In this document: one piece after another, positions 41,319 through 55,715 of the stretch
How positions within the stretch are numbered: the first letter of the stretch is position 1
Layout of the letters: every line of letters starts with the position of its first letter
Assembly (NCBI GenBank): GCA_048887225.1
Contig: JBHLJY010000011.1
Location: forward strand, 13,326-77,325
From: Candidatus Hodarchaeota archaeon
Lineage (GTDB): Archaea > Asgardarchaeota > Lokiarchaeia > Sigyniarchaeales > SOKP01
Direction: 5' to 3'
DNA: 64,000 nt
Program-made: the position numbers and the translations under genes
Notes under the pieces: model-generated
Seen by the model: only the letters and a program-made list of their open reading frames with translations
The model's database searches: none
What the model was told of the DNA's origin: nothing

Positions 41319-43679
41319 TTAACTTAAAGGTTGGAATACCTTTTTCTTAACTAGTTTAAGGATTATTTCTGCTTTTTTAGCATTAAATTCCCTTTCAGGC
41401 ATTAAAGATGCGACGTAGAAATGATTAGTATTCTTTTGTTTCATAATATCTAATACTTCTTTTACAAGGATTCTTTCTTGAATATCAAGTTTAATATCTT
41501 CCGACCTAACTGCTTTTAAAGGGTAGACTAAAGATGTGTTTAAATGATCTTCGATTAAATCCCTTATACCTTCAAATTGAGTTATTTCACCGTCAAAATC
41601 TCCAAGCGATTTACCGTAATATCTATCAATATCATAAGATAATGGGTTAAGTGCATTATAAAAGTCGCTTGATGGATTTTCTTTCATAATATTAATTATC
41701 CTGAAATTTTTAAATTCTGACATTAAAATCTTCATATTCTGATATTCTAATTTTATCGTTTGAGAATATTCATCGGAGCCTGAAAGCTCTAATCCAAAGT
41801 TGCGAATTGCTTCTAAAAATCCTGAGACTAATGTCACCTCAACTTTTTTGCCTGCTAGAACTTGTTCATATACATTTATTCCAGATTTTTTTTCAGCAAT
41901 AATAATATAATCAAGATTTAAAACATCATTATATTTGTTAAAAATTCTCTGTCTATATTCCGCTTTACTCCTCTTAATCTTCCTAACCACTTGATAGGAA
42001 GTTAGACCAGCAATTGAACTTAGTATTATAATAAGAACTATTACAAATATTAATTGTGGATCAATACCAGTAACAACAGTATCACTATCATCATTATCAT
42101 TATCTGAAGATTTAATAATTATAATCTCTTGAGTTTGAATTCCAGTGTCAGTTTCATTATTCCAGCAAACATAGGCAATCCATGTACCTGTATGCGGATT
42201 TGATGAAATCATATACGAGAAAATATTTTGATATGGAGGTGTTTCTGCTGTATCATTATATTCTTCATAACCTAATGCATCGATTAAGACGTATGTAAGA
42301 TTGCCGGTCAAACCAGGAGTGTTAACAGTAAATATTAAATTTTGGTTTGCTTCAAAGGTAGTCTTAGGAACTTCTAAAGTAAAACCTACATTTGGAGAAT
42401 TAGCAGTAATTTTCCATATAGAATTTAGTGAAATACAATTGTTAAGTATATATAATGTATTTCCAATATCCTTGATATCAGGATCTGATGTAATATTTAC
42501 ATTATCTCTCCATACTGTCAGATTATACCAACTTTTTGGATATCCAAATTTAACAGAATTATTAATAAAATGTGCTTTAATGTCAGGAGTTAGAGTCCAT
42601 GAATTATTTAAGTTTTCTTTAATTAAGACAAATCCATCCGAAGACATGAAATTTCTCAAGTAAATATGATAGCTTAGGTTTACTAATAATTCGATGGATT
42701 GGTTGTGTTTTATTGGTATATGCAAAATTTCATTATTTGGAGAAAAATCAAGATCTTGTATGCTCACATTTCCTGTGTAAGGCTTTAATCCATTGCTAAC
42801 TGTATAATTGTTACTGTCAATTTCCACAGCCATATTTATCTCTACTGGATTATAGGACTTATTTACTCTTTGAACTAATTTATATAGATGAGTTTTTTCA
42901 ATCCCCTCGTCAGACCATGATGAGCCATCATGTTGTGCTATACGTAAATTTGGATTTAACCATCCATGAGCACTCTTTTCATTGTTCCACCAATAATAAA
43001 CTGTATTATCAAATTCAGTTAAAGCTGATCCATTAATTACTAATGAATAATATCCTTTTGAAAGATTTACTGGATTCGAAAATGTTTGAAGATGCCACAT
43101 TTCAGTTGTATTCATATTTATTATTTCAGATGCATACACAGTTTCATTTGGAATATTGTCAGGAATTTCATCATAACCTCTTAATTGGAATAGAACTTTA
43201 TTGGTTGGATCATTTTCTCTATTGCCATAAATATACGCCCCAAAAATAGTTATTGGTTCTGTAATATTAACTTGTACGCTTAGAGCTTTTTGCTCGTCCC
43301 AGCCTACTAATTTTCTACGGTCCGGGTAATCTTCAATTGTTATTATTTGCCGACCTAATTTCACACTAGTAAAATTCAACTCTATATCTGTAATATTCCA
43401 AGTAGATGATGGTAGATTTATGTTAAACGAACCAACATTCTTTTGAATGCCAATATCATCTGAAGATTCTAACATTTGAAAGCTTGATGATATATTTAAA
43501 GATTCATCAATATATTGAGGAGCAGAAAGCTTAAGTGCTTGGTCTTTAAAACGAGATTGAGAAGGAGAATTAATTGTATTTTGAGATTGAATTGGGGAAA
43601 AAATAAATGAATTTAATAACACCAAAAGGAAACTTGATAAAATTAATATACATGTTATATAAATTCCTTTTTTTCTCAC
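41319..43679 (-). CDS. Receptor-like membrane protein: beta-rich ectodomain, TM, cytoplasmic longin-like domain
   Basis: N-terminal signal/TM; ~500 aa N/S/T-rich with many NxS/T; TM IFVIVLIIILSSIAGL; then IIIAEKKSGIN.Y...LVSGFL.AI.NFG.E. Confidence 0.75.
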   Translation of the reverse strand: MRKKGIYITCILILSSFLLVLLNSFIFSPIQSQNTINSPSQSRFKDQALKLSAPQYIDESLNISSSFQMLESSDDIGIQKNVGSFNINLPSSTWNITDIELNFTSVKLGRQIITIEDYPDRRKLVGWDEQKALSVQVNITEPITIFGAYIYGNRENDPTNKVLFQLRGYDEIPDNIPNETVYASEIINMNTTEMWHLQTFSNPVNLSKGYYSLVINGSALTEFDNTVYYWWNNEKSAHGWLNPNLRIAQHDGSSWSDEGIEKTHLYKLVQRVNKSYNPVEINMAVEIDSNNYTVSNGLKPYTGNVSIQDLDFSPNNEILHIPIKHNQSIELLVNLSYHIYLRNFMSSDGFVLIKENLNNSWTLTPDIKAHFINNSVKFGYPKSWYNLTVWRDNVNITSDPDIKDIGNTLYILNNCISLNSIWKITANSPNVGFTLEVPKTTFEANQNLIFTVNTPGLTGNLTYVLIDALGYEEYNDTAETPPYQNIFSYMISSNPHTGTWIAYVCWNNETDTGIQTQEIIIIKSSDNDNDDSDTVVTGIDPQLIFVIVLIIILSSIAGLTSYQVVRKIKRSKAEYRQRIFNKYNDVLNLDYIIIAEKKSGINVYEQVLAGKKVEVTLVSGFLEAIRNFGLELSGSDEYSQTIKLEYQNMKILMSEFKNFRIINIMKENPSSDFYNALNPLSYDIDRYYGKSLGDFDGEITQFEGIRDLIEDHLNTSLVYPLKAVRSEDIKLDIQERILVKEVLDIMKQKNTNHFYVASLMPEREFNAKKAEIILKLVKKKVFQPLS

Positions 43680-44017: not shown

Positions 44018-47000
44018 TTGACTTATATTAAAAAAATTAGCATGTCAGGTTTCAAATCCTTTGGAGATCGAACGGTAACAGTTAAGCTTTCAAGCGGCTT
44101 TACTTGTATTGTTGGGCCTAATGGTGCTGGAAAGTCTAATATCATTGATGCGTTATGCTTTGCATTAGGAAGATTAAGCAAGAAGACAATGAGAGCAAAA
44201 TCCCTAGAAGATCTTATTTTTGCGGGTTCAAAAGGTAAAAATCCTGCTAATAGGGCTATGGTTACTTTGCACTTTGATAACTCTGAAAGCGTATTTCCGG
44301 GTGGCGCAAACGGAGATTTTACTATTAGTCGAACTATAAAGAGAGGCGGGGGGGGTGGTTATAAAATGAATGGTAAAAAAGCCACTCGACAACAAATTCT
44401 TAATGCCCTAGCTACAGCTAATATAGATCCTGATGGAACTAACCAATTTGTCCTTCAAGGTAAGATAGTCGAATTAACTCATATGAACTCTGAGGATCGC
44501 AGAAGATTTATTGAAGAACTTATTGGGCTTCAAAAATACGATGAAATGAAAGATGCAACACTAAAGGAACTTGAAAAAGCAGAGCGAGATCTTGGCCAAT
44601 TTGAGGCAATCTTCAATGAAGTATCTGCTCAATTAAGAAAAGTTGAAAAGGAAAAAAATGACGCGCTTGCATGGCGTGAACTAGATGATCAAATAAGTCA
44701 TTATAACGCTCAATTAATCTCTTTGAAAATTTCAAAATTACAAAAAGAAGAAGAAGAATTAGATAAAAAAATCGAAGAATCTGGTAAAGTCATTGAAGAA
44801 TTACAAGAAAAAATAGTTAGACAAGAGGATATTCTGAAACAAGAAACCCTCGTTATGGAAAATATCCAAAAAACTATAACTGAAAAAGAAAAAGAAAGAG
44901 AAGAAATAAACGAAGGTATTACGCAATTAAAGACGCAGTTATCTTCTAATCAAACTACTTTAGATTTAGCTGAAAAATCAATTGAAAAATTAAGACTAGA
45001 AAAGGAAAATTTAGAAAACTTACTAATGACTCTTGAAGAGGGTCAGAATTTTGATTCTCAAATTAAAATTGTAACTATAGAAATCTCTGAAAAAGAAGCA
45101 CAAATAGAAAATGCAAAACAAGATATTGAAAAAAGGCAGCAAAACCAAGCTGAACTAGATATTAAAATTAATAATAGTGAAGATGAAAAATCTAATTTTA
45201 AATTAGAAATTTCGAAAGTTAAACAACAAATCTCATCAAACAAGGCACAAATTAAACTTCTTCGAGAAAATATAAAAAAAAATAAAGATAAGAAAAAGAA
45301 TTTAGAGGCAGAATTAAATAGATTAAAGGGAGAGGCTGAGAGTGTAGAAGATGCTGTTGAAGCGACAAGAAAAATTGAAAGCGAGATTAGAAAAAGAATT
45401 GAAGACTTAAAAAATAAAATTTCTGAAGAAAATAAGAGACAAATGAATTTAGAAAACTCAGTTAGTTCTACACTAAAAGTGAAAAGTGATTTAAATTCAA
45501 AATTATCTGGTTTACAAGCAACATTATCGTCTCTTAATACAGAAATTAAAATGAAAAAAGAGACTATTGCGGAGTTGAATACGAAAAAAGCAGACATTGG
45601 AAAAAAAATTAAAGAATTAAGTAAAGGTAAAGAAACGGAAGAAATTATAAAAGAACTCATAAAAGAAAAAGAAAATAATATTAAAAAAATTACTAACTTA
45701 AAGGCTAAATCCAAAAACGAGGATTCAATTTATCGCGAGAACGAACAAAATTTTGAATTATTAAAATTGAAACAAAACTCTATTGAAACTGAAATTATTG
45801 ATAATAAAGGAAAAATTTCAAACATCAATACCGAACTAAAAATATTTAAAAAAGAATTAATGAACTTAGAGCGTGAAAAACGAAATTTAGACTTAATTAT
45901 TAATGATTTGAACGCTAATATCTCAAAAACAGGAAAAGAAATAAAAAACTTCAATATAAAAAAAGAAAATATCCAAAGACGGCTAAATGAACTCTCTAAA
46001 GAGAAGGAAACTTTATTGAACAGGATTGAAAATACAGAAGAAGAATATGAGAAAAATAAAGAGGATATCACAGGAATTCTACAAATCCTAAATATGCTTA
46101 CTCAAAATATCGATGTGTCTGTAGAATCTATTAAGGGCTCTATACAACAATCAAATACCGAAGCGATTAATACATCTGCGGAAGATTTTAGAAAATTCGT
46201 ATTAGACATTGTTGATATAATGAAAACTCTAGAGAGCGTAGGTGGTGACGCAGATGAAATATCTGAAATGACAGATATGCTTAATTCTATAGTTCAAACA
46301 TTAGGGATTTTTACTGAAAATGCTGATGCTACAATTGAACAACTTATTAATAAAGTAAAGGACTCAGCTGATATTGCAGTACAAAGTTCTACATCAGATT
46401 TTGATAGTTTTGTTCAAGACTTAACATATATCCTTGAAAATGTACATTTGTCTTTAAGAAAATTAACTTTATCTAAAAGTCAAGAGCTTTATAAACAGTT
46501 AGAAGAAATTTCAAATAATATCAAATCTCAAGATGATGACTTAAATGATATTGAGAGAAAACTAACAATAGTGAGTAGTCAAAATAAACATGATTCAGAA
46601 AAACTCTCAGCATCAAAACGAAGGCTTGAGGAAGTTCACAAAAGAATGAAAGATTTAAACTTAAAAGAAGAAAAATATAAGAAAGAAATAGAGGAAAGGA
46701 ATAAGAAAATAAAAGAAAGACAAAGTAATTATGATGATTTAAATAATGAAATAAATAAATTAAAGGAAATAAAAGATAGATACTGGGATAATATTTCTGA
46801 AATTCAAAATGAGAGTGATAGAATCCAAATTGAATTAAACAATAATCAAGAAAAACTTCAAGAACTAGAAGGAATTCAAACTTTATTTGAAAATATAGCA
46901 GATATTGACAATATAATGCTTGAATTGAATAATACTATAGAAGAAAAGAAAAAACTAATAATCGATACTGGAACGAAAATTAATAAGGTACAACAAGAAG

Positions 47001-48475
47001 CAGAATCTTTACAGAAAAAGATAGAAACTTTAACCAGCGACAAAGAGAAATTTTGGGAAACAACTGAGGATATACAGATCAAAATAGATGAAGAAAATAA
47101 AAAATTAGAAGAAACAATAGATGTTCTAAGAGGTCTCGATAATATAATGAGAATTATCCATTCAATTGAAGAATTAAAAAAAGAAAACGTAGAAGCAAAT
47201 AAAAACATTGAACTAAGCAAAAAAAAGATGGATAACTATAATTCTGAAGTTGATAAAATCCAAAAAAATGTTGAAGATAAACAAAGAGTAATAGATACAT
47301 TAAGAGATGAAAAGGCTGCAGAATTAGAAGAGCAAAAGAAAGCTCAAAATAAATTAAATAAGTTAAATAAAAATTTACAGAAAACTCAAGCTAAATTAAA
47401 TGAATTATATAAAAATAAAGAAAGAGAACAACAAATAATCAAAATTGGAGAGAATATCAAAGAGACAGAAAAACAAACAGAAGTTTTAGTAAAAAAAATT
47501 GGAAAACTTGATGAAAATTTAGAAAACGAAATCAAGAAAAAAGATGCAAAACAGGCGGAAATAGATGAATTTATTAAAGAAAAAGATGAATCTTGGAAAA
47601 AGCAAAAACAATATCAAAATATAATTACTGATCTTAAGTCAGATCTTTCAATGGAGAATTCTAAAATAAACAATTTTGAATCTAAAAAATTTATTTGTAT
47701 TGATCAGATTGAAACTTTATATGAGAGATCAAAAGATTATGGTACTCTACCTCCAGTAACTGATGAGATCACGGAAGAGGGCCTACAATCGGATATTGAA
47801 ATTGCTACAAAAAAGAAAAAAGCACTTGAGCCCGTCAATTTAAAAGCTATTGAACAATACGATGTTGTTAAAGAAAGATTTGATGAAATAGATATGCGAA
47901 GACAAACAATTCAAAGAGAAAGAAAGGCAATTCTTGACTCAATTGATAAAATTGAATTAGAAAAAACACGTACCTTTATGAAAGCTTATCACGAAATTAA
48001 TCGTGAGTTTTCACGGATTTTCCAGAAACTTTCTCCTGGTGGTTCAGCAAAAATGATTCTGGATAGACCTGATAAACCCTTTGAAGGCGGAATTAGCATT
48101 GAGGCAAGACCAAGGGGTAAAAAGATTAGTTCCCTAGAAATTTTAAGTGGAGGTGAAAAAACATTAGTAGCATTATCATTTATTTTTGCTGTTCAAGAAT
48201 TTTATCCTGCTCCGTTTTACATTTTAGATGAGATTGATGCCGCATTAGACGGTCCAAATGTTCATCGCGTTAGTATGGTGCTCAAAGAATTCTCAAGCCA
48301 AGCTCAATTTTTAGTGATTAGCCATCGAGAAGAAAATATTGTTAATGCAGATAGAATTTATGGAGTTTCGATGCCGCAAAGCGGAATCACTGATATATTT
48401 AGTGTCGATTTAGAAGAAGAAGCAAAAAGACTTCTTGAACTTGAAGATGTCGTGCCTGAAGTTGGAGAGGGCTAA
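44018..48475 (+). CDS. smc: SMC chromosome segregation ATPase, atypical (long arms, no canonical hinge)
   Basis: GFKSF, GPNGAGKSN, Q-loop VLQG, PVNLKA, LSGGEK, YILDEIDAALD, ISH; TTG start with GGGAGA upstream. Confidence 0.93.
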   Translation: MTYIKKISMSGFKSFGDRTVTVKLSSGFTCIVGPNGAGKSNIIDALCFALGRLSKKTMRAKSLEDLIFAGSKGKNPANRAMVTLHFDNSESVFPGGANGDFTISRTIKRGGGGGYKMNGKKATRQQILNALATANIDPDGTNQFVLQGKIVELTHMNSEDRRRFIEELIGLQKYDEMKDATLKELEKAERDLGQFEAIFNEVSAQLRKVEKEKNDALAWRELDDQISHYNAQLISLKISKLQKEEEELDKKIEESGKVIEELQEKIVRQEDILKQETLVMENIQKTITEKEKEREEINEGITQLKTQLSSNQTTLDLAEKSIEKLRLEKENLENLLMTLEEGQNFDSQIKIVTIEISEKEAQIENAKQDIEKRQQNQAELDIKINNSEDEKSNFKLEISKVKQQISSNKAQIKLLRENIKKNKDKKKNLEAELNRLKGEAESVEDAVEATRKIESEIRKRIEDLKNKISEENKRQMNLENSVSSTLKVKSDLNSKLSGLQATLSSLNTEIKMKKETIAELNTKKADIGKKIKELSKGKETEEIIKELIKEKENNIKKITNLKAKSKNEDSIYRENEQNFELLKLKQNSIETEIIDNKGKISNINTELKIFKKELMNLEREKRNLDLIINDLNANISKTGKEIKNFNIKKENIQRRLNELSKEKETLLNRIENTEEEYEKNKEDITGILQILNMLTQNIDVSVESIKGSIQQSNTEAINTSAEDFRKFVLDIVDIMKTLESVGGDADEISEMTDMLNSIVQTLGIFTENADATIEQLINKVKDSADIAVQSSTSDFDSFVQDLTYILENVHLSLRKLTLSKSQELYKQLEEISNNIKSQDDDLNDIERKLTIVSSQNKHDSEKLSASKRRLEEVHKRMKDLNLKEEKYKKEIEERNKKIKERQSNYDDLNNEINKLKEIKDRYWDNISEIQNESDRIQIELNNNQEKLQELEGIQTLFENIADIDNIMLELNNTIEEKKKLIIDTGTKINKVQQEAESLQKKIETLTSDKEKFWETTEDIQIKIDEENKKLEETIDVLRGLDNIMRIIHSIEELKKENVEANKNIELSKKKMDNYNSEVDKIQKNVEDKQRVIDTLRDEKAAELEEQKKAQNKLNKLNKNLQKTQAKLNELYKNKEREQQIIKIGENIKETEKQTEVLVKKIGKLDENLENEIKKKDAKQAEIDEFIKEKDESWKKQKQYQNIITDLKSDLSMENSKINNFESKKFICIDQIETLYERSKDYGTLPPVTDEITEEGLQSDIEIATKKKKALEPVNLKAIEQYDVVKERFDEIDMRRQTIQRERKAILDSIDKIELEKTRTFMKAYHEINREFSRIFQKLSPGGSAKMILDRPDKPFEGGISIEARPRGKKISSLEILSGGEKTLVALSFIFAVQEFYPAPFYILDEIDAALDGPNVHRVSMVLKEFSSQAQFLVISHREENIVNADRIYGVSMPQSGITDIFSVDLEEEAKRLLELEDVVPEVGEG

Positions 48476-48493
48476 TATTAAATCTTCAAAGAG

Positions 48494-49498
48494 GTGTTAA
48501 TAATTTCAGATGAGAAAAGTTCTATGAAAGATATCGATTTTTACAAATGGACAGTAAAGGAATTAAAAGAATTTTGTAGTAAGAATAATATAAAAATACC
48601 CGCAAAGTCTAGAAAAAAAGATATCGTAGAACTTATTCAAAATATAGTATCACATCCTGATTTTATTGATAGATCACAAGAAGAAATGTTAGAAGAAGAA
48701 ATAGTTGCGGAATTTGTTGATGAAGATCTTGCGTTATTAAGAAAAGAGAAAATGGATTTAAAATTTTGGCAAAAACCTCCCTATTCTTCATTATTGGATC
48801 TTGAATTAGCTAAAGATTCTGAACTAGTATTTTATGATTTAGCTAACTTGATTGAAAAATTCTTTTCTAAAATGCTTCAAGAAGATTTAATTAATTATAA
48901 AATTTCAGGAATTGCACTAAAATCAGCAGCATCTTTACATCATTATAAAATTTCTAGCATAATAAAAGAAGAAGAACAGATTCAAAAAATGGAGGAACTA
49001 GAAAAATTAAGGGCTAGACATTCAAGAACGATTCCTAAATCATTACCGCAACCTACAAAACCTAAAATGCAATTAGCCACAAAAGAAGAATTATTTGATG
49101 CAATGAGAGCTGCAATCATTGAAACTATGCAAAACAAAGAAAAATTGAAACGTCGACGGTTGCACAGAGAAGAAGAAAAACAGAAAAGATTACAAATGAA
49201 GTCAAAAGCAAAATTACCTAAAGAACTCTTAAAACACATTAGCGGAAAAGAACAATCTATAGAAGAATTACATGAAAGCTGGTTTAATAGAATAAAAGGA
49301 ACAATTAATCTTAACAATGTGGATACGAGTTTTTTTGATCTTCTCAAGATAATAAAAAGCGACGAAAAAAGTCGCATTGGCAGGAAGTTTGCTCTTGTAA
49401 GATTGTTCTTAGCCCTAATGTTCTTGAGTACTAATAATAAAATTGAGTTATTTCAAGATGATGAATTTAAAGATGTTTCAATTAGTCTTAAAAAATAA
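48494..49498 (+). CDS. scpA: Kleisin ScpA with N-terminal HeH/SAP-like domain
   Basis: DL..LIEKF.......NY..SG.AL..AA.L..YK N-kleisin segment and FLAL.FL....I.L.Q...F.D C-terminal wHTH; lies between smc and scpB. Confidence 0.85.
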   Translation: MLIISDEKSSMKDIDFYKWTVKELKEFCSKNNIKIPAKSRKKDIVELIQNIVSHPDFIDRSQEEMLEEEIVAEFVDEDLALLRKEKMDLKFWQKPPYSSLLDLELAKDSELVFYDLANLIEKFFSKMLQEDLINYKISGIALKSAASLHHYKISSIIKEEEQIQKMEELEKLRARHSRTIPKSLPQPTKPKMQLATKEELFDAMRAAIIETMQNKEKLKRRRLHREEEKQKRLQMKSKAKLPKELLKHISGKEQSIEELHESWFNRIKGTINLNNVDTSFFDLLKIIKSDEKSRIGRKFALVRLFLALMFLSTNNKIELFQDDEFKDVSISLKK

Positions 49499-49531
49499 AA
49501 AATTTCAACTTAAAAATCTTGGAGATGTAAT

Positions 49532-50407
49532 TTGAATAATTTTAATGAAGATTTAGATGAGAATTCTAAAGAAGATAATGAAGATCATTTAGATCAGGAG
49601 TCAAAAGAAGAATCAAATGATCTTTCAAATGAAGAAATTGATGAAATTCCCAAGATTCAATCTCAAGGAAGCGCTACTAAAGGTACTAGTGAAGAAATTA
49701 TTGACGATATAATTTCAAAAAGCGAGATCGATGCTCAAATAGGATTTTCTTCGAAGTCTGATCTTTCTGAAGAAGATATGTTAGTAAGACAATTAAGGGA
49801 TTTTCATCGAAATCAAATTGAAGCTTCTCTTTATGTAGCAGGCAGACCATTGAGTATTGAAGAATTATCAACTAAACTCGAAATTAAAAAAAAAGAAGTT
49901 GAAGAATTAATCAATGAAATTGCTTTCGATTATTTAGATCGTTCAACTGCCCTGGTAATTGCTCAAATAGGAGATAGCTACCAAATGCAAATTAAACCTG
50001 AATATGCAGAAAAAGTCTCAAAATTAGCTAAAGGTGGTGCTATAGCAGAGAGGTACTTAAGAACATTAACTATTATCGCTTTGAAACAACCTATTTTGAA
50101 ATCTTTAGTTGTGAAAATAAGAGGAAGCGGAGCTTATGAGCATATCAAATATCTTCAGGATAACGGTCTAATCGCTGCGGTGAAAAAAGGAAGAACACAC
50201 GAGTTAACTACAACGGATAAATATTCTGAAATGTTTGGATTACCAAAAGATATAGAAGAACTGAAAAGAGTAATGATCTCGCAATTAGGTCTTGATGAAG
50301 TAGAATCTGGAGATGAAATTTCTTATGAAATTGAAGTACCTGCCGAAGATAATGTATTTTCTGAAGATGAAGAATCATCTGAAAATGAAGAAAATACTCA
50401 AGAATAA
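49532..50407 (+). CDS. scpB: KITE subunit ScpB with acidic N- and C-terminal extensions
   Basis: IEA.LY....PLS, Y.MQ.K.EY, TL.IIA.KQPI, IRG, TT..Y...FGL. Confidence 0.92.
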   Translation: MNNFNEDLDENSKEDNEDHLDQESKEESNDLSNEEIDEIPKIQSQGSATKGTSEEIIDDIISKSEIDAQIGFSSKSDLSEEDMLVRQLRDFHRNQIEASLYVAGRPLSIEELSTKLEIKKKEVEELINEIAFDYLDRSTALVIAQIGDSYQMQIKPEYAEKVSKLAKGGAIAERYLRTLTIIALKQPILKSLVVKIRGSGAYEHIKYLQDNGLIAAVKKGRTHELTTTDKYSEMFGLPKDIEELKRVMISQLGLDEVESGDEISYEIEVPAEDNVFSEDEESSENEENTQE

Positions 50408-50414
50408 TTTGGTC

Positions 50415-53021
50415 TTAATTAGGTGAGAAATAAAAAGTTATACCTAATCCTTCTATACGGTCTTTTGATTCTGGTTTTTCTTTAATTTTATCCTCTTGAG
50501 CTTTTTCAAGTATTTCCAAGCTTTTTATTCGAATTGTGTTTTGTATGTCTTTTTCCAAGGCTTTAAGAATCTTTTGTATGTTGTTCTCTGAGATTATAAC
50601 GACTCTTGAAACTTCTTGATTTAAAGGAATTTGAAGCATTGATTTATGATTCCTAAGAGCTTTAATTAATTCAATGACAATCTTTCCTTTTTCAGCTAAT
50701 TCCTCAGAGATGTTATCATATGGATTAGGCCAACGCTCTAAATGAATTGACTTGAATTTTTTGTATTTTCTGAAAAATAATGAATATATTTCTTCAGTAA
50801 TAAAAGGCATTATCACAGCAAAGATTTTTAATAGATTATAAAAAAGATTTAATGCATTTTTTAATGTGGTTTCTTTAATCTTTTGATCTTCTGAATAGAA
50901 TTTATATTTTATAGCTTCAATATAATTATCACAAATATCATTCCAGAAAAATGGTCTAAAAATTGTAAGTGCATCGTGCCAATTGTATCCATCAAAATAT
51001 TTGGAGATCATATCAAGTTTTTTATTAAATTCAAAATAAAAATAGCTATCAATAGCAGAAAGTTCATCTATATTAATTTCTATATCATGAACTTTAATGG
51101 TATTTAAACTTAGACCTAAAAACCTATAAGCATTCCAAATTTTAGTTATAAAACGCGATGCCCCAATTAACTGTTCAAATCTTCTACCATATTTTTTATT
51201 AAATTTCTCTTCAGTTAATTTCTCTTGCTCTTCTTTAATAGAGTCATCTGATATTGGTTGTTTTGTCTGAAGATTAAACCACGTATATTCTAATGGATAA
51301 TCATCTCCAAGGGATCCAAGTGCTGCCCATTGTCTAATCGCATCTGCTCCATAATCGGGCATAACTTCGTCTGGAGAAACTATATTACCAAAACTCTTTG
51401 ACATTTTCCTCCCATCAGGACCTGCGACCATTCCATTTATCATTATTTCATAAAAAGGGGCTTTTGCCGTTAATTTCTTACATCGAAATAATGTATAAAA
51501 AAGCCACGTTCGGATAATCTCATACCCTTGAGGGCGATGGACTTTAGCTTTCATGTATGTTTTATCAAAAAAATCGTCATCCTCTAACCATTTAGCAATA
51601 ACTAAAGGTGTAATACTCGAATCAATCCAACAATCGCAGACATCTTTTTCTCCTAATATATTTTTGCCTTTACACTTTGGACATTCGCTCACAGGGGGTG
51701 GTGTTATTACAGGATCTAATGGTAAATCCTCTGCCTTTGAAGGAATAATCTCTCCACAATCTTTACAATACCAAAATGGAATCGGAGTTCCAAAAACTCT
51801 TTGACGTGATATCACCCAATTCCAATCTAAACCTTCACACCAGTCTATTAATCTCTGTTTATGCTTTTCAGGATACCAATTCATGATTTCACCAGATTCA
51901 ATGATTTCATTTGTAAATTCCTTCACTTTTATAAACCACTGGTCAACTGGTAAGTATTCAATTGGTCTCCTACATGATGATCTTTCTGAATGGATAACAA
52001 TCCGATGATCGTAATCTTCAATCTTCCCTAACAAACCCATCTTGTCAAGATCCTTTAGAATTTGCTCCCGAGCTTCTAAAATTTTCATACCTTGATATTT
52101 TGAATTCTCGTTCATATGCCCATCTTCTGTAAATATTTGAATCTCTTCGAGCCCGTATTCGATTTTCCATTTTATATCTAACTCATCTCCATATGTACAG
52201 CAGTAAACTATTCCAGTACCAAAATTCATATCTGCATTTCTGTCCATATATACTCGGACATTTCTTTCAGTAAACGGAATCTCAACTTCGGCAGCAGAAA
52301 GATGATAAAATCTTTCATCATTTGGGTGAATAAAAATGCCAACACATGCCTCCATATATTCAGGACGAGTTGTAGCTATAGTTATGTACTCATTTTCTCT
52401 CCCAACTAACGGTAGTCTTAAATACCATAACTTTCCTGACTCTTCTTGATAAGCAACCTCTGCCTTTGCAACAGAAGTTTCGCAATTAACACAGAAATGT
52501 GTAGGAAATTTATCACGATATAACCATCCTTTCTCATAAAAGTATAACAAGGACCATTGAATTTTGTACTTATAATCATCGTTCATTGTTCGATAAGTAT
52601 AATCCCAATCGGTAGAATACCCTAACTCGTCATATTGTTTTGTCATGTTTCTAATGTTTTGATTAACCCATTCGATGCATTTTGCTAAGAAATTCTCTCG
52701 CTGATGTTTTGTTAATCCATATTCTTTCTCAACAGCAAGTTCCACAGGGAGTCCATGGCAATCATAGCCTTGAGGAAAATAAACATTATAAATACCTTTC
52801 ATTCTTTGATAACGTGCAACGAAATCTATCCATGCGTGGTTTAAAATATGCCCTAGATGTAGGGTACCACTAACAAAAGGCGGAGGTGTATCGATTGAAA
52901 ATATTTCACCTTGAGCAGTTATGTCGAATTTATATATTTCCTCGTTTCGCCAGTATTTAATCCATTTTTCTTGAACTTCGTTAAAATTAAATCGTTTTGG
53001 AATTGCCTTTTCTTGTGCCAT
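50415..53021 (-). CDS. valS: Valyl-tRNA synthetase (archaeal type)
   Basis: IDTPPP..SG.LHLGH, DCHGLP, ATTRPE, ISRQR.FG.P.P, RPQG.EIIRTW, KMSKS. Confidence 0.96.
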   Translation of the reverse strand: MAQEKAIPKRFNFNEVQEKWIKYWRNEEIYKFDITAQGEIFSIDTPPPFVSGTLHLGHILNHAWIDFVARYQRMKGIYNVYFPQGYDCHGLPVELAVEKEYGLTKHQRENFLAKCIEWVNQNIRNMTKQYDELGYSTDWDYTYRTMNDDYKYKIQWSLLYFYEKGWLYRDKFPTHFCVNCETSVAKAEVAYQEESGKLWYLRLPLVGRENEYITIATTRPEYMEACVGIFIHPNDERFYHLSAAEVEIPFTERNVRVYMDRNADMNFGTGIVYCCTYGDELDIKWKIEYGLEEIQIFTEDGHMNENSKYQGMKILEAREQILKDLDKMGLLGKIEDYDHRIVIHSERSSCRRPIEYLPVDQWFIKVKEFTNEIIESGEIMNWYPEKHKQRLIDWCEGLDWNWVISRQRVFGTPIPFWYCKDCGEIIPSKAEDLPLDPVITPPPVSECPKCKGKNILGEKDVCDCWIDSSITPLVIAKWLEDDDFFDKTYMKAKVHRPQGYEIIRTWLFYTLFRCKKLTAKAPFYEIMINGMVAGPDGRKMSKSFGNIVSPDEVMPDYGADAIRQWAALGSLGDDYPLEYTWFNLQTKQPISDDSIKEEQEKLTEEKFNKKYGRRFEQLIGASRFITKIWNAYRFLGLSLNTIKVHDIEINIDELSAIDSYFYFEFNKKLDMISKYFDGYNWHDALTIFRPFFWNDICDNYIEAIKYKFYSEDQKIKETTLKNALNLFYNLLKIFAVIMPFITEEIYSLFFRKYKKFKSIHLERWPNPYDNISEELAEKGKIVIELIKALRNHKSMLQIPLNQEVSRVVIISENNIQKILKALEKDIQNTIRIKSLEILEKAQEDKIKEKPESKDRIEGLGITFYFSPN

Positions 53022-53336: not shown

Positions 53337-55715
53337 TTAATATTGTGTTCGAGCAATGATTTCATCTTGTGCTCCTTTAGATAACTCATTAAATAATACA
53401 GAATAGCCTGCAATTCTTACAACCAATCCTCGATACTGTTCTGGATTTTTCTGAGCGTCGCATAGTACATCTTTGCCAACAACATTAAATTGTATATGAT
53501 ACCCACCATTTGGTTGAAAAAACGTTCGTATTAGAGAAGGAAATAACTCTAACTTTAAAGTATTTGGGTGGAAAGATAAAATAAGTGAATTACCATTCGT
53601 CATTAATTCATTTTCAAGTTTCATAACTGAATTAAGAATAGCTGTAGGACCGTTTTTATCTCTGCTAGTAAAAGGTCCAACCCCATTTGAAAGAGGCTCT
53701 CTTGATTTTCTTCCATCCGCAGTTGCTGCCGTAAACACTCCAAATGCTAAATGAAATGTAGTAGAATAGATTCCTGGATTATATTTCCCACCTCGATAAT
53801 TTACATGTTTTACAATTTCATTACAAAATTGTTTTGCAACATCATGCGCAATTGAATCAACATAATCAACATCGTTACCAAATTTAGGAACTTTATTAAT
53901 AAAATATTCTCTCCATTCTGCCCCTTTTCTGCCTTGGTATGTACCTCTATAATTTTTCACTAACATCTGAACTAAATCTTCATAAGGAAGTAGTTTATCT
54001 TCAAATACAACCTTTTTTATAACAGCAAGACTATCTGCTACCGTTGCCAATCCAATTCCCTGTGTGGTTGTAAAGTCATAAAGAGCTCCTCCGCTGGTAA
54101 TATCAAGTCCGCGGTCAATACAATTGTCTATTGTTGCTGATAAAAATGGCTGAGGATTAAGTTCAGCGATAGATTTATCAAGATAACTCATGGTTTCAAC
54201 CATCGGCTCAATGAAATATTTAATTTGATTGACAAATTCGTCCCAAAGATCTTGGTAAGATGCGATTTCTTTACTATTTTCAATTCCGTATTTATTTCTA
54301 GTAAACATATCAACTCCATTATTAAGCGTTAATTCCAAACATTTTACAAGGTTGATTTGAGTTGCATTTGTACATCCAAGGGTTTTACACGGATGTGCTG
54401 GCTCAACACATCCTATAGGTGCATATTCACGAGCATCTTTGAGAGTATAGCCAAGATTAACGAGTCCTGATATCATGACGTCATCATTATATAAAGCAAT
54501 GCTTGCTCCCGCCTTAATGGATTCACCAGTTTTAACAATTAATTCTTCTGGAGTATTTTCATGAACTCTAACTGAAAAGGTTGGTTGGACTGTCTTAAGA
54601 TGATTGTAAGATTCTAAAAGCAAATAAGATAATTCATTTGTCGCATCGTCCCCTTCTCGGGTAACACCTCCAATCGTTAAATTCGCTGCGATCGGGGGAC
54701 CTTCTGCTGCAACTATTCCTTTATTAAGAACGTAATTCCATAAAGTTGATTGCTTTATATAAAAGCATTCAATAAGAAACTGAATTTCTTCGGCTGAAAT
54801 TGTTCCTTTCTCTATATCTTTTAAATAAAATGGGTATAAAACTTGATCTAAACGACCAATACTTATTGCAAAACCACCATCTTCTAAGCCACATACTACA
54901 TGAGTAAAATAGATTAGTTGTAGTGCTTCTTTAAAAGAGCTTGGGGGTTTTTCAGAGATATTACGACAGATCTGAGAAATTTCTTCTAGTTCTTTTTGTC
55001 GCTTTGGGTCTAAATCTTTTTCAGCCATTTTTTTAGCTAAATTTGAATATCTTTCAATATATTCTTTTACGGCATTGCAAACTATAATAACCGAATTCAA
55101 AAAACTCATTTTCTTGGAATCTTCAGAAAATTCCTTCAATCTTTCTTCTGTTTTTTCTATTAAACCATTTATCCCATCTTTTAAGACATTTTCATGACCT
55201 GGGAAGAAGTGCCCAATCCCATTTGTAATATCAGTATCAACAATATAAAGTAAATTTAGCATAAGTTCATTTAATTCAGAATTTAAATAACTTTCAAATC
55301 TCGCTCGAACAGTTTCGTCTTCATTTTTCCAATAAGGTATGATTTCTTCCCTTAATATTCGTCTATCCTCATCAGATAATAAAAATCGCTGAACCTCTCG
55401 GGAATCGTAAAGATTTAAATCTTGTTCAATTGTATCCACACGAACTTCAGGATATAAAGGAGTCCCAACTATCTTCGTTGTTCGATTACCAACTATAAAT
55501 TCATCATCCCAAATTTTTATTGTCATATTTGTTAATAAATAATCCATTGCCTTTGCGAATCGAATAATTGGAGACTCACCTTTTGTTTTTTTATAAGATT
55601 CGGTAAAAAACTTAGCTCTTTCAATACAAATTTCGTGTGGTGCTACAACAACCTTGTTTTTCATTCTTAACGTTCTTTCTTTATATTCTGAACGTAAAGC
55701 TTGCTCGAGTTGCAT
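53337..55715 (-). CDS. Glycyl radical enzyme (PFL2/dehydratase-like)
   Basis: E.IVGN, GRLDQ.LYP.Y, IGCVEP Cys loop, PKFGN, ATADGR, HIQFNV, LVVRIAGYS Gly-radical loop. Confidence 0.93.
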   Translation of the reverse strand: MQLEQALRSEYKERTLRMKNKVVVAPHEICIERAKFFTESYKKTKGESPIIRFAKAMDYLLTNMTIKIWDDEFIVGNRTTKIVGTPLYPEVRVDTIEQDLNLYDSREVQRFLLSDEDRRILREEIIPYWKNEDETVRARFESYLNSELNELMLNLLYIVDTDITNGIGHFFPGHENVLKDGINGLIEKTEERLKEFSEDSKKMSFLNSVIIVCNAVKEYIERYSNLAKKMAEKDLDPKRQKELEEISQICRNISEKPPSSFKEALQLIYFTHVVCGLEDGGFAISIGRLDQVLYPFYLKDIEKGTISAEEIQFLIECFYIKQSTLWNYVLNKGIVAAEGPPIAANLTIGGVTREGDDATNELSYLLLESYNHLKTVQPTFSVRVHENTPEELIVKTGESIKAGASIALYNDDVMISGLVNLGYTLKDAREYAPIGCVEPAHPCKTLGCTNATQINLVKCLELTLNNGVDMFTRNKYGIENSKEIASYQDLWDEFVNQIKYFIEPMVETMSYLDKSIAELNPQPFLSATIDNCIDRGLDITSGGALYDFTTTQGIGLATVADSLAVIKKVVFEDKLLPYEDLVQMLVKNYRGTYQGRKGAEWREYFINKVPKFGNDVDYVDSIAHDVAKQFCNEIVKHVNYRGGKYNPGIYSTTFHLAFGVFTAATADGRKSREPLSNGVGPFTSRDKNGPTAILNSVMKLENELMTNGNSLILSFHPNTLKLELFPSLIRTFFQPNGGYHIQFNVVGKDVLCDAQKNPEQYRGLVVRIAGYSVLFNELSKGAQDEIIARTQY

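Follow-up and report, generated by a model that had tools for sequence, protein, structure and literature searches.

Can a chromosome-organising SMC complex do without its hinge? To our knowledge, the hinge is regarded as a defining and universal part of true SMC proteins, and dimerisation of the distal ends is general across the characterised SMC and Rad50 families. There is active debate on what the hinge does in DNA loading, loop extrusion and obstacle bypass. The question is raised by an operon located in a 64,000-nucleotide stretch of a Candidatus Hodarchaeota genome from the Lokiarchaeia (hereinafter the window), in which the SMC protein has, where a hinge was expected, a tip made of helices only, borne on arms that are about 1.5 times as long as usual. 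A preliminary description made from the sequence alone had portrayed this locus as an intact operon encoding a remodelled condensin, all three subunits of which deviate from the canonical complex.

The operon and its three subunits

The features discussed here are listed in Table 1. All three ORFs are on the same strand, with gaps of 18 nt between the SMC and ScpA genes and 33 nt between the ScpA and ScpB genes. The TTG start of the SMC gene yields the canonical M-x-YIK N-terminus; for ScpA, most homologues agree better with a start at M11 (window position 48524) than with the GTG. The genes follow one another in the order of the canonical Asgard operon, which encodes an SMC of about 1190 aa, a ScpA of about 235 aa and a ScpB of about 185 aa, and by comparison with this operon all three subunits indeed deviate. 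The operon is also intact, as claimed, tightly spaced and conserved under strong constraint: it is kept in 17 of the 20 sampled genomes, complete ones among them.

Table 1. Features of the long SMC operon (window coordinates; residues are those of the respective protein)
Feature	Coordinates	Strand	Details
Long hinge-less SMC gene	44018..48475	+	1485 aa, P0001
N-terminal half of ABC ATPase head	44018..44527	+	aa 1-170; Walker A GPNGAGKS 33-40, Q-loop Q147
N-arm tandem repeats	44735..45907	+	four ~97-98-aa coiled-coil units, about aa 240-630
Apex module in place of hinge	46067..46462	+	aa 684-815; two similar helices, 684-744 and 755-815
C-arm tandem repeats	46595..47677	+	four 90-aa coiled-coil units, about aa 860-1220
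C-terminal half of ATPase head	47888..48475	+	aa 1291-1485; LSGGE signature 1376, Walker B FYILDE 1400, D-loop, H-loop ISH 1434
Kleisin ScpA gene	48494..49498	+	334 aa counted from GTG
HeH/SAP-like helix-extended loop-helix module	48542..48649	+	aa 17-52, then acidic disordered linker aa ~60-90
Kleisin C-terminal winged-helix domain (predicted)	49259..49489	+	aa 256-332; of the type that binds the SMC head cap
ScpB kite gene	49532..50407	+	291 aa

Judging by its sequence, the SMC protein has complete heads of the canonical archaeal type. The Walker A, Q-loop, signature, Walker B, D-loop and H-loop motifs (the earlier account had stated that all ATPase motifs are present) were located and are invariant across 105 homologues. 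The SMC_N domain (PF02463) gives a split match over residues 3-1458 (E = 2.5e-45), and in a phmmer search of the PDB the best match is the Pyrococcus Smc (5xei, 401 bits), compared with about 150-190 bits for SMC2, SMC1, SMC3 and SMC4 and about 32-42 bits for SMC5/6 chains. Among the NCBIfam models, the score is 584 bits for TIGR02168 (cut-off 567, exceeded) and 614 bits for TIGR02169, the archaeal Smc equivalog (cut-off 729, not reached). The survey of Asgard SMC lengths proposed in the preliminary description puts the hinged proteins at 1180-1228 aa (n = 23), so that the window SMC is about 290 aa longer, close to the excess of about 300 aa originally stated. More than 160 homologues of the long SMC exist, with lengths of 1464-1497 aa, 65-75% identity and hardly any indels.

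Apart from its N-terminal extension, the kleisin is a normal one. The SMC_ScpA match (PF02616) in the window protein is weak (residues 214-332, E = 5e-4), and this model matches 25 of the 63 family members; a Foldseek search with the AlphaFold2 (AF2) model returned as top matches the C-terminal domains of ScpA, Scc1 and Rad21 bound to SMC heads (best 4i99_C, TM 0.84, rmsd 2.2), and the predicted winged helix is of the type that binds the SMC cap. The N-terminal helical domain of the kleisin is retained as well. The putative HeH domain noticed earlier at the very N-terminus holds up when the whole family is considered. In the window ScpA, the Pfam matches to Ish1, HeH and SAP at residues 17-50 are below threshold (Ish1, 23.5 bits with a cut-off of 26.6); across the family (n = 63), Ish1 matches 57 members (best E = 2.7e-11), Rho_N 42, HeH 37 and SAP 14, and AF2 predicts a helix at 21-30, a loop and a helix at 41-52 with pLDDT of about 80. 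Lineages differ in this extension: it can be an HeH module or a Cys/His motif, and in the kleisin of the MK-D1 family it is a Lys-rich tail. The preliminary description had proposed that the HeH domain may make up for lost hinge-DNA contacts. That sister lineages carry a Lys-rich tail or a Cys/His motif instead of HeH would fit a requirement for some DNA-binding appendage, although it is no proof of one.

ScpB retains its core (SMC_ScpB, PF04079, aa 95-246, E = 3e-36; TIGR00281, 99.7 bits with a cut-off of 89.2) that is flanked by the long acidic tails described previously, namely an N-tail of 92 aa (aa 1-92, 30% D/E) and a C-tail of 43 aa (aa 249-291, 40% D/E, no K/R). The acidic tail is kept in families f1-f3 of the carrier order and is missing in f4. 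In the phylogenetic tree, the window ScpB clusters with the canonical Asgard ScpB (83/92), apart from the kite protein that accompanies the hinged paralogue.

The tip and the arms of the long SMC

So what occupies the middle of the protein, where the hinge belongs? The SMC_hinge model (PF06470), which the preliminary description had proposed as the check on its claim that the hinge is lacking, has no Pfam match in residues 560-960 even at E<=10. A search of PDB sequences with the window SMC matched zero hinge-only chains; in the positive control, the other SMC of the same genome does match such chains (4rsj, 3nwc, 1gxl). Comparison of the apex profile with the hinge profile using hhalign gave a probability of 4.7%, and the profile search of PDB sequences with the middle region retrieved coiled coils only. 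In the AF2 model, residues 631-879 form nothing but a helical hairpin (helices 631-744 and 749-879); there are no beta strands, and pLDDT at the tip is only 52-72. A Foldseek search of the PDB with the apex model found nothing significant and helical hairpins only, the best among the weak rows being chemoreceptor hairpins and Smc coiled-coil fragments; the ESM Atlas feature search with residues 660-840 returned only unnamed fragments. Thus, the hinge is replaced, not just diverged, and the original observation that it is lacking stands.

The replacement is a region of 132 aa made of two mutually resembling helices, which are diverged copies of one another and form the best-conserved stretch of the rod: conservation reaches 95% at residues 691-720, compared with about 60-78% in the arms. 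The turn between the helices (GGDAD) is variable among homologues. The apex is acidic (22 D/E versus 8 K/R) and has a hydrophobic content of 42%, versus 30-31% in the arms; the three cysteines of the entire protein are at positions 30, 47 and 1227, none of them in the apex. Prediction of an apex homodimer (residues 630-880 in duplicate, alignment supplied, no controls) gave a score of 0.00, which speaks neither for nor against dimerisation. An apex-like module is seen also in head-less coiled-coil proteins.

The additional length resides in the arms, which without the apex comprise 513 and 475 aa. Profile self-comparison yields peaks at offsets 97/98 and 195 for the N-arm and at 90 and 180 for the C-arm; hinged Asgard SMCs, used as the negative control in the same comparison, give no such peaks. 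Each arm has grown by tandem amplification of a single coiled-coil unit, of 97 aa in the N strand and 90 aa in the C strand. A relative with three units per arm (1296-1299 aa, apex at 536-780), which is basal, shows that units have been gained or lost in pairs, one per strand. The precomputed Pfam labels on homologues, PF24161 and PF23649, denote generic coiled-coil families (CCDC39 and FKBP15) and have no match in the source genome.

Distribution and paralogues

The long operon is present in 133 of the 400 Asgard genomes, in one order of Lokiarchaeia (families f1-f4), and is essentially absent elsewhere, so that the proposal of a distinct Asgard SMC class was too broad. The carriers include the cultured Promethearchaeum syntrophicum, and the long SMC is encoded also on complete, single-contig genomes. 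Following another suggestion of the earlier account, a second, hinge-containing SMC was sought in the source genome and found on contig C15 (1193 aa, SMC_hinge E = 3e-33), together with a divergent kite protein; no kleisin adjoins this SMC gene, and across the source genome the only match to PF02616 is the window ScpA. Most genera in the family encode a long SMC and no strong-hinge SMC, with only a weak-hinge SMC of about 1150 aa besides, and in many genomes the long SMC is the sole SMC of the canonical type. The ~1150-aa SMC of these relatives is flanked by small genes, among which there are no matches to kleisin or kite families. In the MK-D1 family, both the long and the hinged types are retained. 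Since the source genome and the MK-D1 family keep a hinged SMC of canonical type, their main condensin is not necessarily the long SMC.

The head-domain phylogeny, also proposed at the outset, gives 99/99 support to each of two clades, one of long SMCs and one of the hinged type B, and a 100/100 branch splits the window SMC from the ~1150-aa weak-hinge SMC, but the backbone support is 40-64 and the tree does not single out the orthologue of the canonical Asgard Smc between the paralogues. The stem of the long clade is long, at about 1.0 changes per site, and evolution after it has been very slow.

Known systems, competing explanations and implications

The closest known system is Smc-ScpAB of Pyrococcus and Bacillus subtilis (5xei, 4i99, 5xg3; TIGR02168/TIGR02169; PF02463 with PF06470, PF02616, PF04079). 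The lokiarchaeal operon shares with it the sequence of the ABC head with all ATPase motifs, the smc-scpA-scpB order, the N-terminal helical domain and C-terminal winged helix of the kleisin, the ScpB core and the long antiparallel coiled-coil arms. It differs by the duplicated helical hairpin where the hinge belongs, by arms that, the apex not counted, measure about 513/475 aa and have four tandem units per strand, as against about 340 aa in the known system, and by the HeH/SAP-like N-module with its acidic linker in the kleisin and the acidic tails of ScpB. A B. subtilis Smc in which the zinc hook of Pyrococcus Rad50 takes the place of the hinge, Smc(Zh), is functional, and the arms of natural Smc proteins fall into length groups of 238, 341 and 515 aa, spaced by steps of about 100 aa (Burmann et al. 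2017, PMC5344682). Like Smc(Zh), the lokiarchaeal protein has an unrelated tip module instead of the hinge, and its arms vary in steps of similar size; unlike Smc(Zh), it is natural and conserved, and its tip has no CxxC. Rad50/SbcC and RecN are hinge-less SMC-like ATPases in which, too, the heads are borne on a coiled coil with a small apex at its end, but their head similarity to the window SMC is weak (Rad50 about 30 bits in the PDB search; recN 28 bits with a cut-off of 408), and the lokiarchaeal protein has neither a zinc hook nor an Mre11/SbcD neighbour, its partners being a kleisin and a kite. Membership in Rad50/SbcC was accordingly rejected, with no CxxC in the apex, ScpA and ScpB as neighbours and the Rad50 models far under their cut-offs. 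Multiple SMC complexes, including SMC5/6-related ones, are known in TACK and Asgard archaea (PMC8665677; 10.1101/2024.01.07.573240), and the long operon adds to this multiplicity; relatives of the source genome carry an SMC5/6-related protein of this kind, the SMC of about 1150 aa. Assignment of the window SMC to this group would call for a head nearer to SMC5/6 than to SMC1-4, a Nse4-like kleisin and Nse1/3-like kites, whereas the window heads are of the SMC1-4/canonical type and the partners ScpA/ScpB-like; the PDB scores cited above and the full-support split from the ~1150-aa SMC led us to reject this assignment as well. The SMC-kleisin-kite region of P. syntrophicum (genes 808-810) has been named condensin/cohesin-related, with hinge and length unremarked (10.1101/2024.01.07.573240, Document S1); this region is probably the orthologue of the long operon because, in the data analysed, only the long operon has the SMC-kleisin-kite order. 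In the literature searched, where subscription journals are thinly covered, the architecture of hinge-less or long Asgard SMCs is not described, in line with the initial suggestion of an undescribed system.

Taken together, we consider it likely that the long operon encodes a lineage-specific archaeal Smc-ScpAB complex that organises the chromosome in the lokiarchaeal order of P. syntrophicum. Such a complex would still be an ATP-driven SMC-kleisin DNA motor: ATP would engage the two heads, the kleisin would link one SMC, at its neck, to the second, at its cap, with ScpB dimers seated on the kleisin. The arms would extend to about 75-85 nm, compared with the usual ~50 nm or so, and the far ends of the two SMCs would be joined, in place of a hinge, by the hydrophobic, acidic apex hairpins packing into a helical bundle, of which the conservation and hydrophobicity of the apex are suggestive. 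Because it is acidic, the apex is probably not a DNA binder; the DNA-binding-type appendage at the kleisin N-terminus (HeH here) may provide a DNA anchor, which the conserved acidic ScpB tail may regulate, or else this tail may compete with DNA.

Could the long SMC rather be an accessory paralogue, engaged in DNA tethering or repair, in replication-linked cohesion or in a structural role in large, protrusion-forming cells, with chromosome organisation left to the hinged type B or the ~1150-aa type C? The hinged SMC and kite encoded on C15, the retention of both types in the MK-D1 family, the presence of the apex-like module in head-less proteins and the long stem followed by slow change, a pattern known after a shift of function, are all compatible with this scenario. 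However, it is the long SMC that occupies the canonical operon position, with a ScpA and a ScpB nearest to the canonical Asgard ones, while the hinged SMC has no adjoining kleisin and the single ScpA-family match in the genome is the window gene; moreover, most genera in the family have the long SMC yet lack a strong-hinge one. We therefore regard an accessory role as unlikely. A similarly low probability attaches to the possibility that the apex joins no SMC pair, the complex being held by head engagement and the kleisin alone, as open, tweezer-like or single folded rods that would entrap no DNA topologically. The self-contained hairpin of the AF2 monomer, the variable turn and the presence of neither a Cys hook nor a hinge would fit a free tip, but no part of the rod is better conserved than the helices on either side of the turn, which are also more hydrophobic than the arms; this is unexpected for such a tip, and both the hinge and the Rad50 hook serve for dimerisation (PMC5344682).

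The remaining alternatives carry far less weight. That the middle region is a highly diverged hinge escaping sequence methods is suggested by its position midway along the chain, as for a hinge, and is nevertheless very improbable in view of the exclusively helical AF2 model, the negligible hhalign probability, the coiled coils and helical hairpins that alone were retrieved by the PDB profile and Foldseek searches, and the composition of the region from two look-alike helices. We found no point in favour of the gene being in decay, or an artefact of assembly or annotation, and consider the probability vanishingly small: the homologues, more than 160 of near-full length with hardly any indels, some on complete single-contig genomes, and the invariant catalytic motifs rule out chance or an assembly artefact.

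If the long operon encodes a lineage-specific chromosome-organising Smc-ScpAB, what would follow? We put forward, tentatively and as a conjecture for which the odds are somewhat less than even, that the principal condensin-type motor of the order of P. syntrophicum works hinge-free, with arms of about 80 nm closed by a helical-bundle apex almost unique in sequence space, and with an auxiliary DNA contact moved to the kleisin, where the DNA-binding module would have been exchanged at least three times. If true, SMC proteins in nature could function without the hinge fold, and arms would grow in evolution through coiled-coil units added in pairs, one to each strand. The modular arms, in which each strand has three or four units (97 and 90 aa), are a natural counterpart of the engineered finding that only steps of about 100 residues are allowed in the length of Smc arms. 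The swaps of the kleisin module and the acidic ScpB tail may point to regulatory parts missing from canonical prokaryotic condensins. A conserved, natural hinge-less Smc-ScpAB would turn the debate on the role of the hinge into a direct experiment, and its carriers include cultured relatives of the eukaryotic ancestor.

An all-helical apex at the hinge position

As judged from sequence, the heads of the long SMC are canonical. In keeping with the preliminary description, which had noted all ATPase motifs, the Walker A, Q-loop, signature, Walker B, D-loop and H-loop motifs are present in the window protein and invariant among 105 full-length homologues; the Pfam SMC_N match is split across residues 3-1458, the NCBIfam model TIGR02168 is matched with 584 bits, exceeding its cut-off, and in the PDB sequence search Pyrococcus Smc heads rank first (5xei at 401 bits) and SMC2/1/3/4 next, with SMC5/6 and Rad50 chains reaching only ~30-40 bits.

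Could the hinge, which that description considered missing, be hidden in the middle region in a highly diverged form? This possibility has to be rejected. SMC_hinge is unmatched on residues 560-960 even at E<=10; the PDB sequence search with the long SMC matched none of the hinge-only chains, many of which are matched by the genome's other SMC as a positive control; a PDB search with a middle-region profile yields nothing but coiled coils; and hhalign comparison of this profile with that of 23 Asgard hinges gives a probability of 4.7%. Furthermore, the AF2 model (70 homologues) is all-helical, with two long helices at residues 631-744 and 749-879 and a GGDAD turn between them (pLDDT exceeds 90 along the flanks and falls to 52-72 towards the tip). 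We conclude that the hinge is replaced rather than hidden.

In a profile self-comparison, the two turn-flanking helices (684-744 and 755-815) are similar to one another at an offset of 71; they are the most conserved segment of the rod (95% at 691-720), the turn itself being variable. The apex is acidic (8 K/R vs 22 D/E), devoid of cysteine and more hydrophobic than the arms (42% vs 30-31%). A search with the apex core (A4) against 1.84 billion representative proteins matches no more than 41 clusters, which consist of long SMCs and one family of head-less coiled-coil proteins; the latter may have donated the apex, derive from it or act as a partner. Two such proteins (see table), neither with a Pfam match, carry at least one copy of the apex module near the N-terminus and end in a basic, Lys/Ser/Thr-rich tail that resembles the tail of the kleisin in the family of Promethearchaeum syntrophicum MK-D1.

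Coordinates of the long operon, its neighbours and related loci
Feature	Location	Strand	Length (aa)	Remarks
SMC	44018-50407 region, first gene	+	1485	Pfam, NCBIfam
ScpA	second gene, 18 nt after SMC	+	334	Pfam
ScpB	third gene, 33 nt after ScpA	+	291	Pfam
Upstream ORF	41319-43679	-	786	Directly upstream of the operon; no Pfam family at E<=0.001
Downstream neighbour	50415-53021	-		Ordinary; class I aminoacyl-tRNA synthetase
Downstream neighbour	53337-55715	-		Ordinary; pyruvate formate-lyase-like glycyl-radical enzyme
Hinged SMC and kite, contig C15	L014:5990-10124	-	1193 and 188	14-nt overlap
Weak-hinge SMC, genome G170	L053:3583-9497		~1146	Same genus
Head-less protein, P. syntrophicum	L055:3981-6746	-	921	DSAG12_01461
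Second head-less protein	L054:5688-9044	+	1118	

Kleisin, kite and arms

The canonical Asgard operon outside the order, which encodes a hinged SMC of 1180-1228 aa, a ScpA of 224-265 aa (one of 311) and a ScpB of 169-198 aa, has the same gene order as the long operon, and in the latter this order is intact in 17 of 20 sampled genomes. The PFW..PPW motif lies within the first ~20 residues of canonical ScpA but at residue 71-149 of long-operon ScpA, where it is preceded by a module of a DNA-binding type, by sequence, and an acidic linker. In most of the window's family this module is HeH/SAP-like; in one genus (L035 of genome G149 and L036 of G147, two sequences only) the HeH is replaced by a CPYCGKIFQRLSQHKC motif (CPYC...HKC) that looks like a C2HC zinc knuckle; and in most of the MK-D1 family the kleisin has a tail with 30-46% K/R and about 30% S/T. 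The HeH domain proposed earlier for the window ScpA is borne out by two HeH helices in the AF2 model and by Ish1/HeH/SAP matches at residues 17-50, all sub-threshold. The rest of the model comprises a disordered linker, kleisin helices and a C-terminal winged helix whose best structural matches are the C-domains of ScpA, Scc1 and Rad21 bound to SMC heads; the Pfam ScpA match, in the C-terminal part, is weak (E 5e-4). The core of ScpB is clearly matched (residues 95-246, E 3e-36), and its acidic tails, likewise described before, recur as N-tails of 60-170 aa with 27-46% D/E in the sampled genomes of f1 (the window's family), f2 and f3; the tail of a relative from family f4 is Pro/Ala-rich (17% D/E), and canonical ScpB has none.

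When the 105-sequence profile is compared with itself, the N arm (~residues 240-630) shows sharp peaks at offsets 97/98 and 195, and the C arm (~860-1220) shows peaks at 90 and 180, corresponding to four units per strand; the 23 hinged Asgard SMCs, analyzed in the same way as a control, give heptad peaks only. In the basal relative G281, the apex lies ~97 residues earlier and the C part is ~88 residues shorter; this type (1296-aa representative, labelled Sigynarchaeota at NCBI) thus has three units per strand, so gain or loss of units is paired. The arms, counted without the apex, are 513 and 475 aa long, near the 515-aa mode of natural Smc arms, which change in ~100-aa steps (Burmann et al., PMC5344682), and the rod would measure ~75-85 nm if the helices are continuous.

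Paralogues, descent and distribution

The window's genome (3.27 Mb, 98% complete; the window is on contig C11) also encodes the second, hinge-containing SMC whose existence had been raised as a question. Located on contig C15, this canonical SMC has a strong hinge match (E 3e-33) and is followed by a divergent ScpB-like kite, and no adjoining kleisin was found; the window gene is the genome's sole ScpA-family match, and the hinged SMC may share its product. Such hinged paralogues (type B) turn up in f4 and the MK-D1 family as well as in a few genera of the window's own family. In most genera of the latter, the only other SMC is a ~1150-aa protein with weak hinge and SMC_N matches (type C), probably of an SMC5/6-related type, which is absent from the window's genome. 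The weak-hinge SMC of G170 (hinge at 35 bits) has flanking ORFs of 421, 215 and 172 aa, none of which matches a kleisin or kite family; the 215-aa ORF alone gives a match, below threshold, to DUF3531.

In the head tree, which has type C as the outgroup (100/100) and an unresolved backbone, the long SMCs and type B form distinct clades, each supported at 99/99, within the canonical group. In the ScpB tree, long-operon proteins cluster with canonical Asgard ScpB (83/92), and type-B kites fall outside on long branches. This grouping and the common gene order favour the long operon as the direct descendant of the smc-scpA-scpB operon of canonical Asgard type.

A search of 400 genomes of the phylum with a profile of residues 630-880 detects the long SMC in 133, including 113 of the 134 that belong to the window's family, 1/1 in f2, 14/14 in f3 and 2/4 in f4, all families of the same order. 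In MK-D1 itself (G143), the orthologue has 1493 aa and precedes ScpA and ScpB. The nearest database proteins carry Promethearchaeota or Lokiarchaeia MAG labels. There are only two matches outside the order, one of which (genome G039; three fragments, E ~1e-130) we suspect to reflect mis-binning. Long SMCs with 62-92% identity in the apex region also occur on L078, L088, L096, L097, L114 and L138 under the submitter labels Thorarchaeota, Hodarchaeota, Hermodarchaeota, Odinarchaeota and even Nanopelagicaceae bacterium, probably because Lokiarchaeia contigs were mislabelled or mis-binned.

A candidate DNA motor

Asgard archaea have been described as possessing two or three SMC complexes (PMC8665677; 10.1101/2024.01.07.573240), and one of these studies lists an SMC-kleisin-kite region of P. 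syntrophicum as related to condensin/cohesin. Hinge loss and long arms are mentioned in neither, and further literature searches on long hinge-less Asgard SMCs found nothing. Because the catalytic and partner-binding parts are retained and purifying selection is strong, we regard the long complex as a working DNA motor of the Smc-ScpAB type. An experimental precedent for an Smc-ScpAB with a non-hinge tip is the functional Smc(Zn-hook) chimera (PMC5344682). Given its conservation and hydrophobicity, the apex would close the ring or rod of the long SMC; more speculatively, and in keeping with the pattern of module swapping, the kleisin appendage might anchor DNA and the acidic ScpB tail might regulate this anchor.
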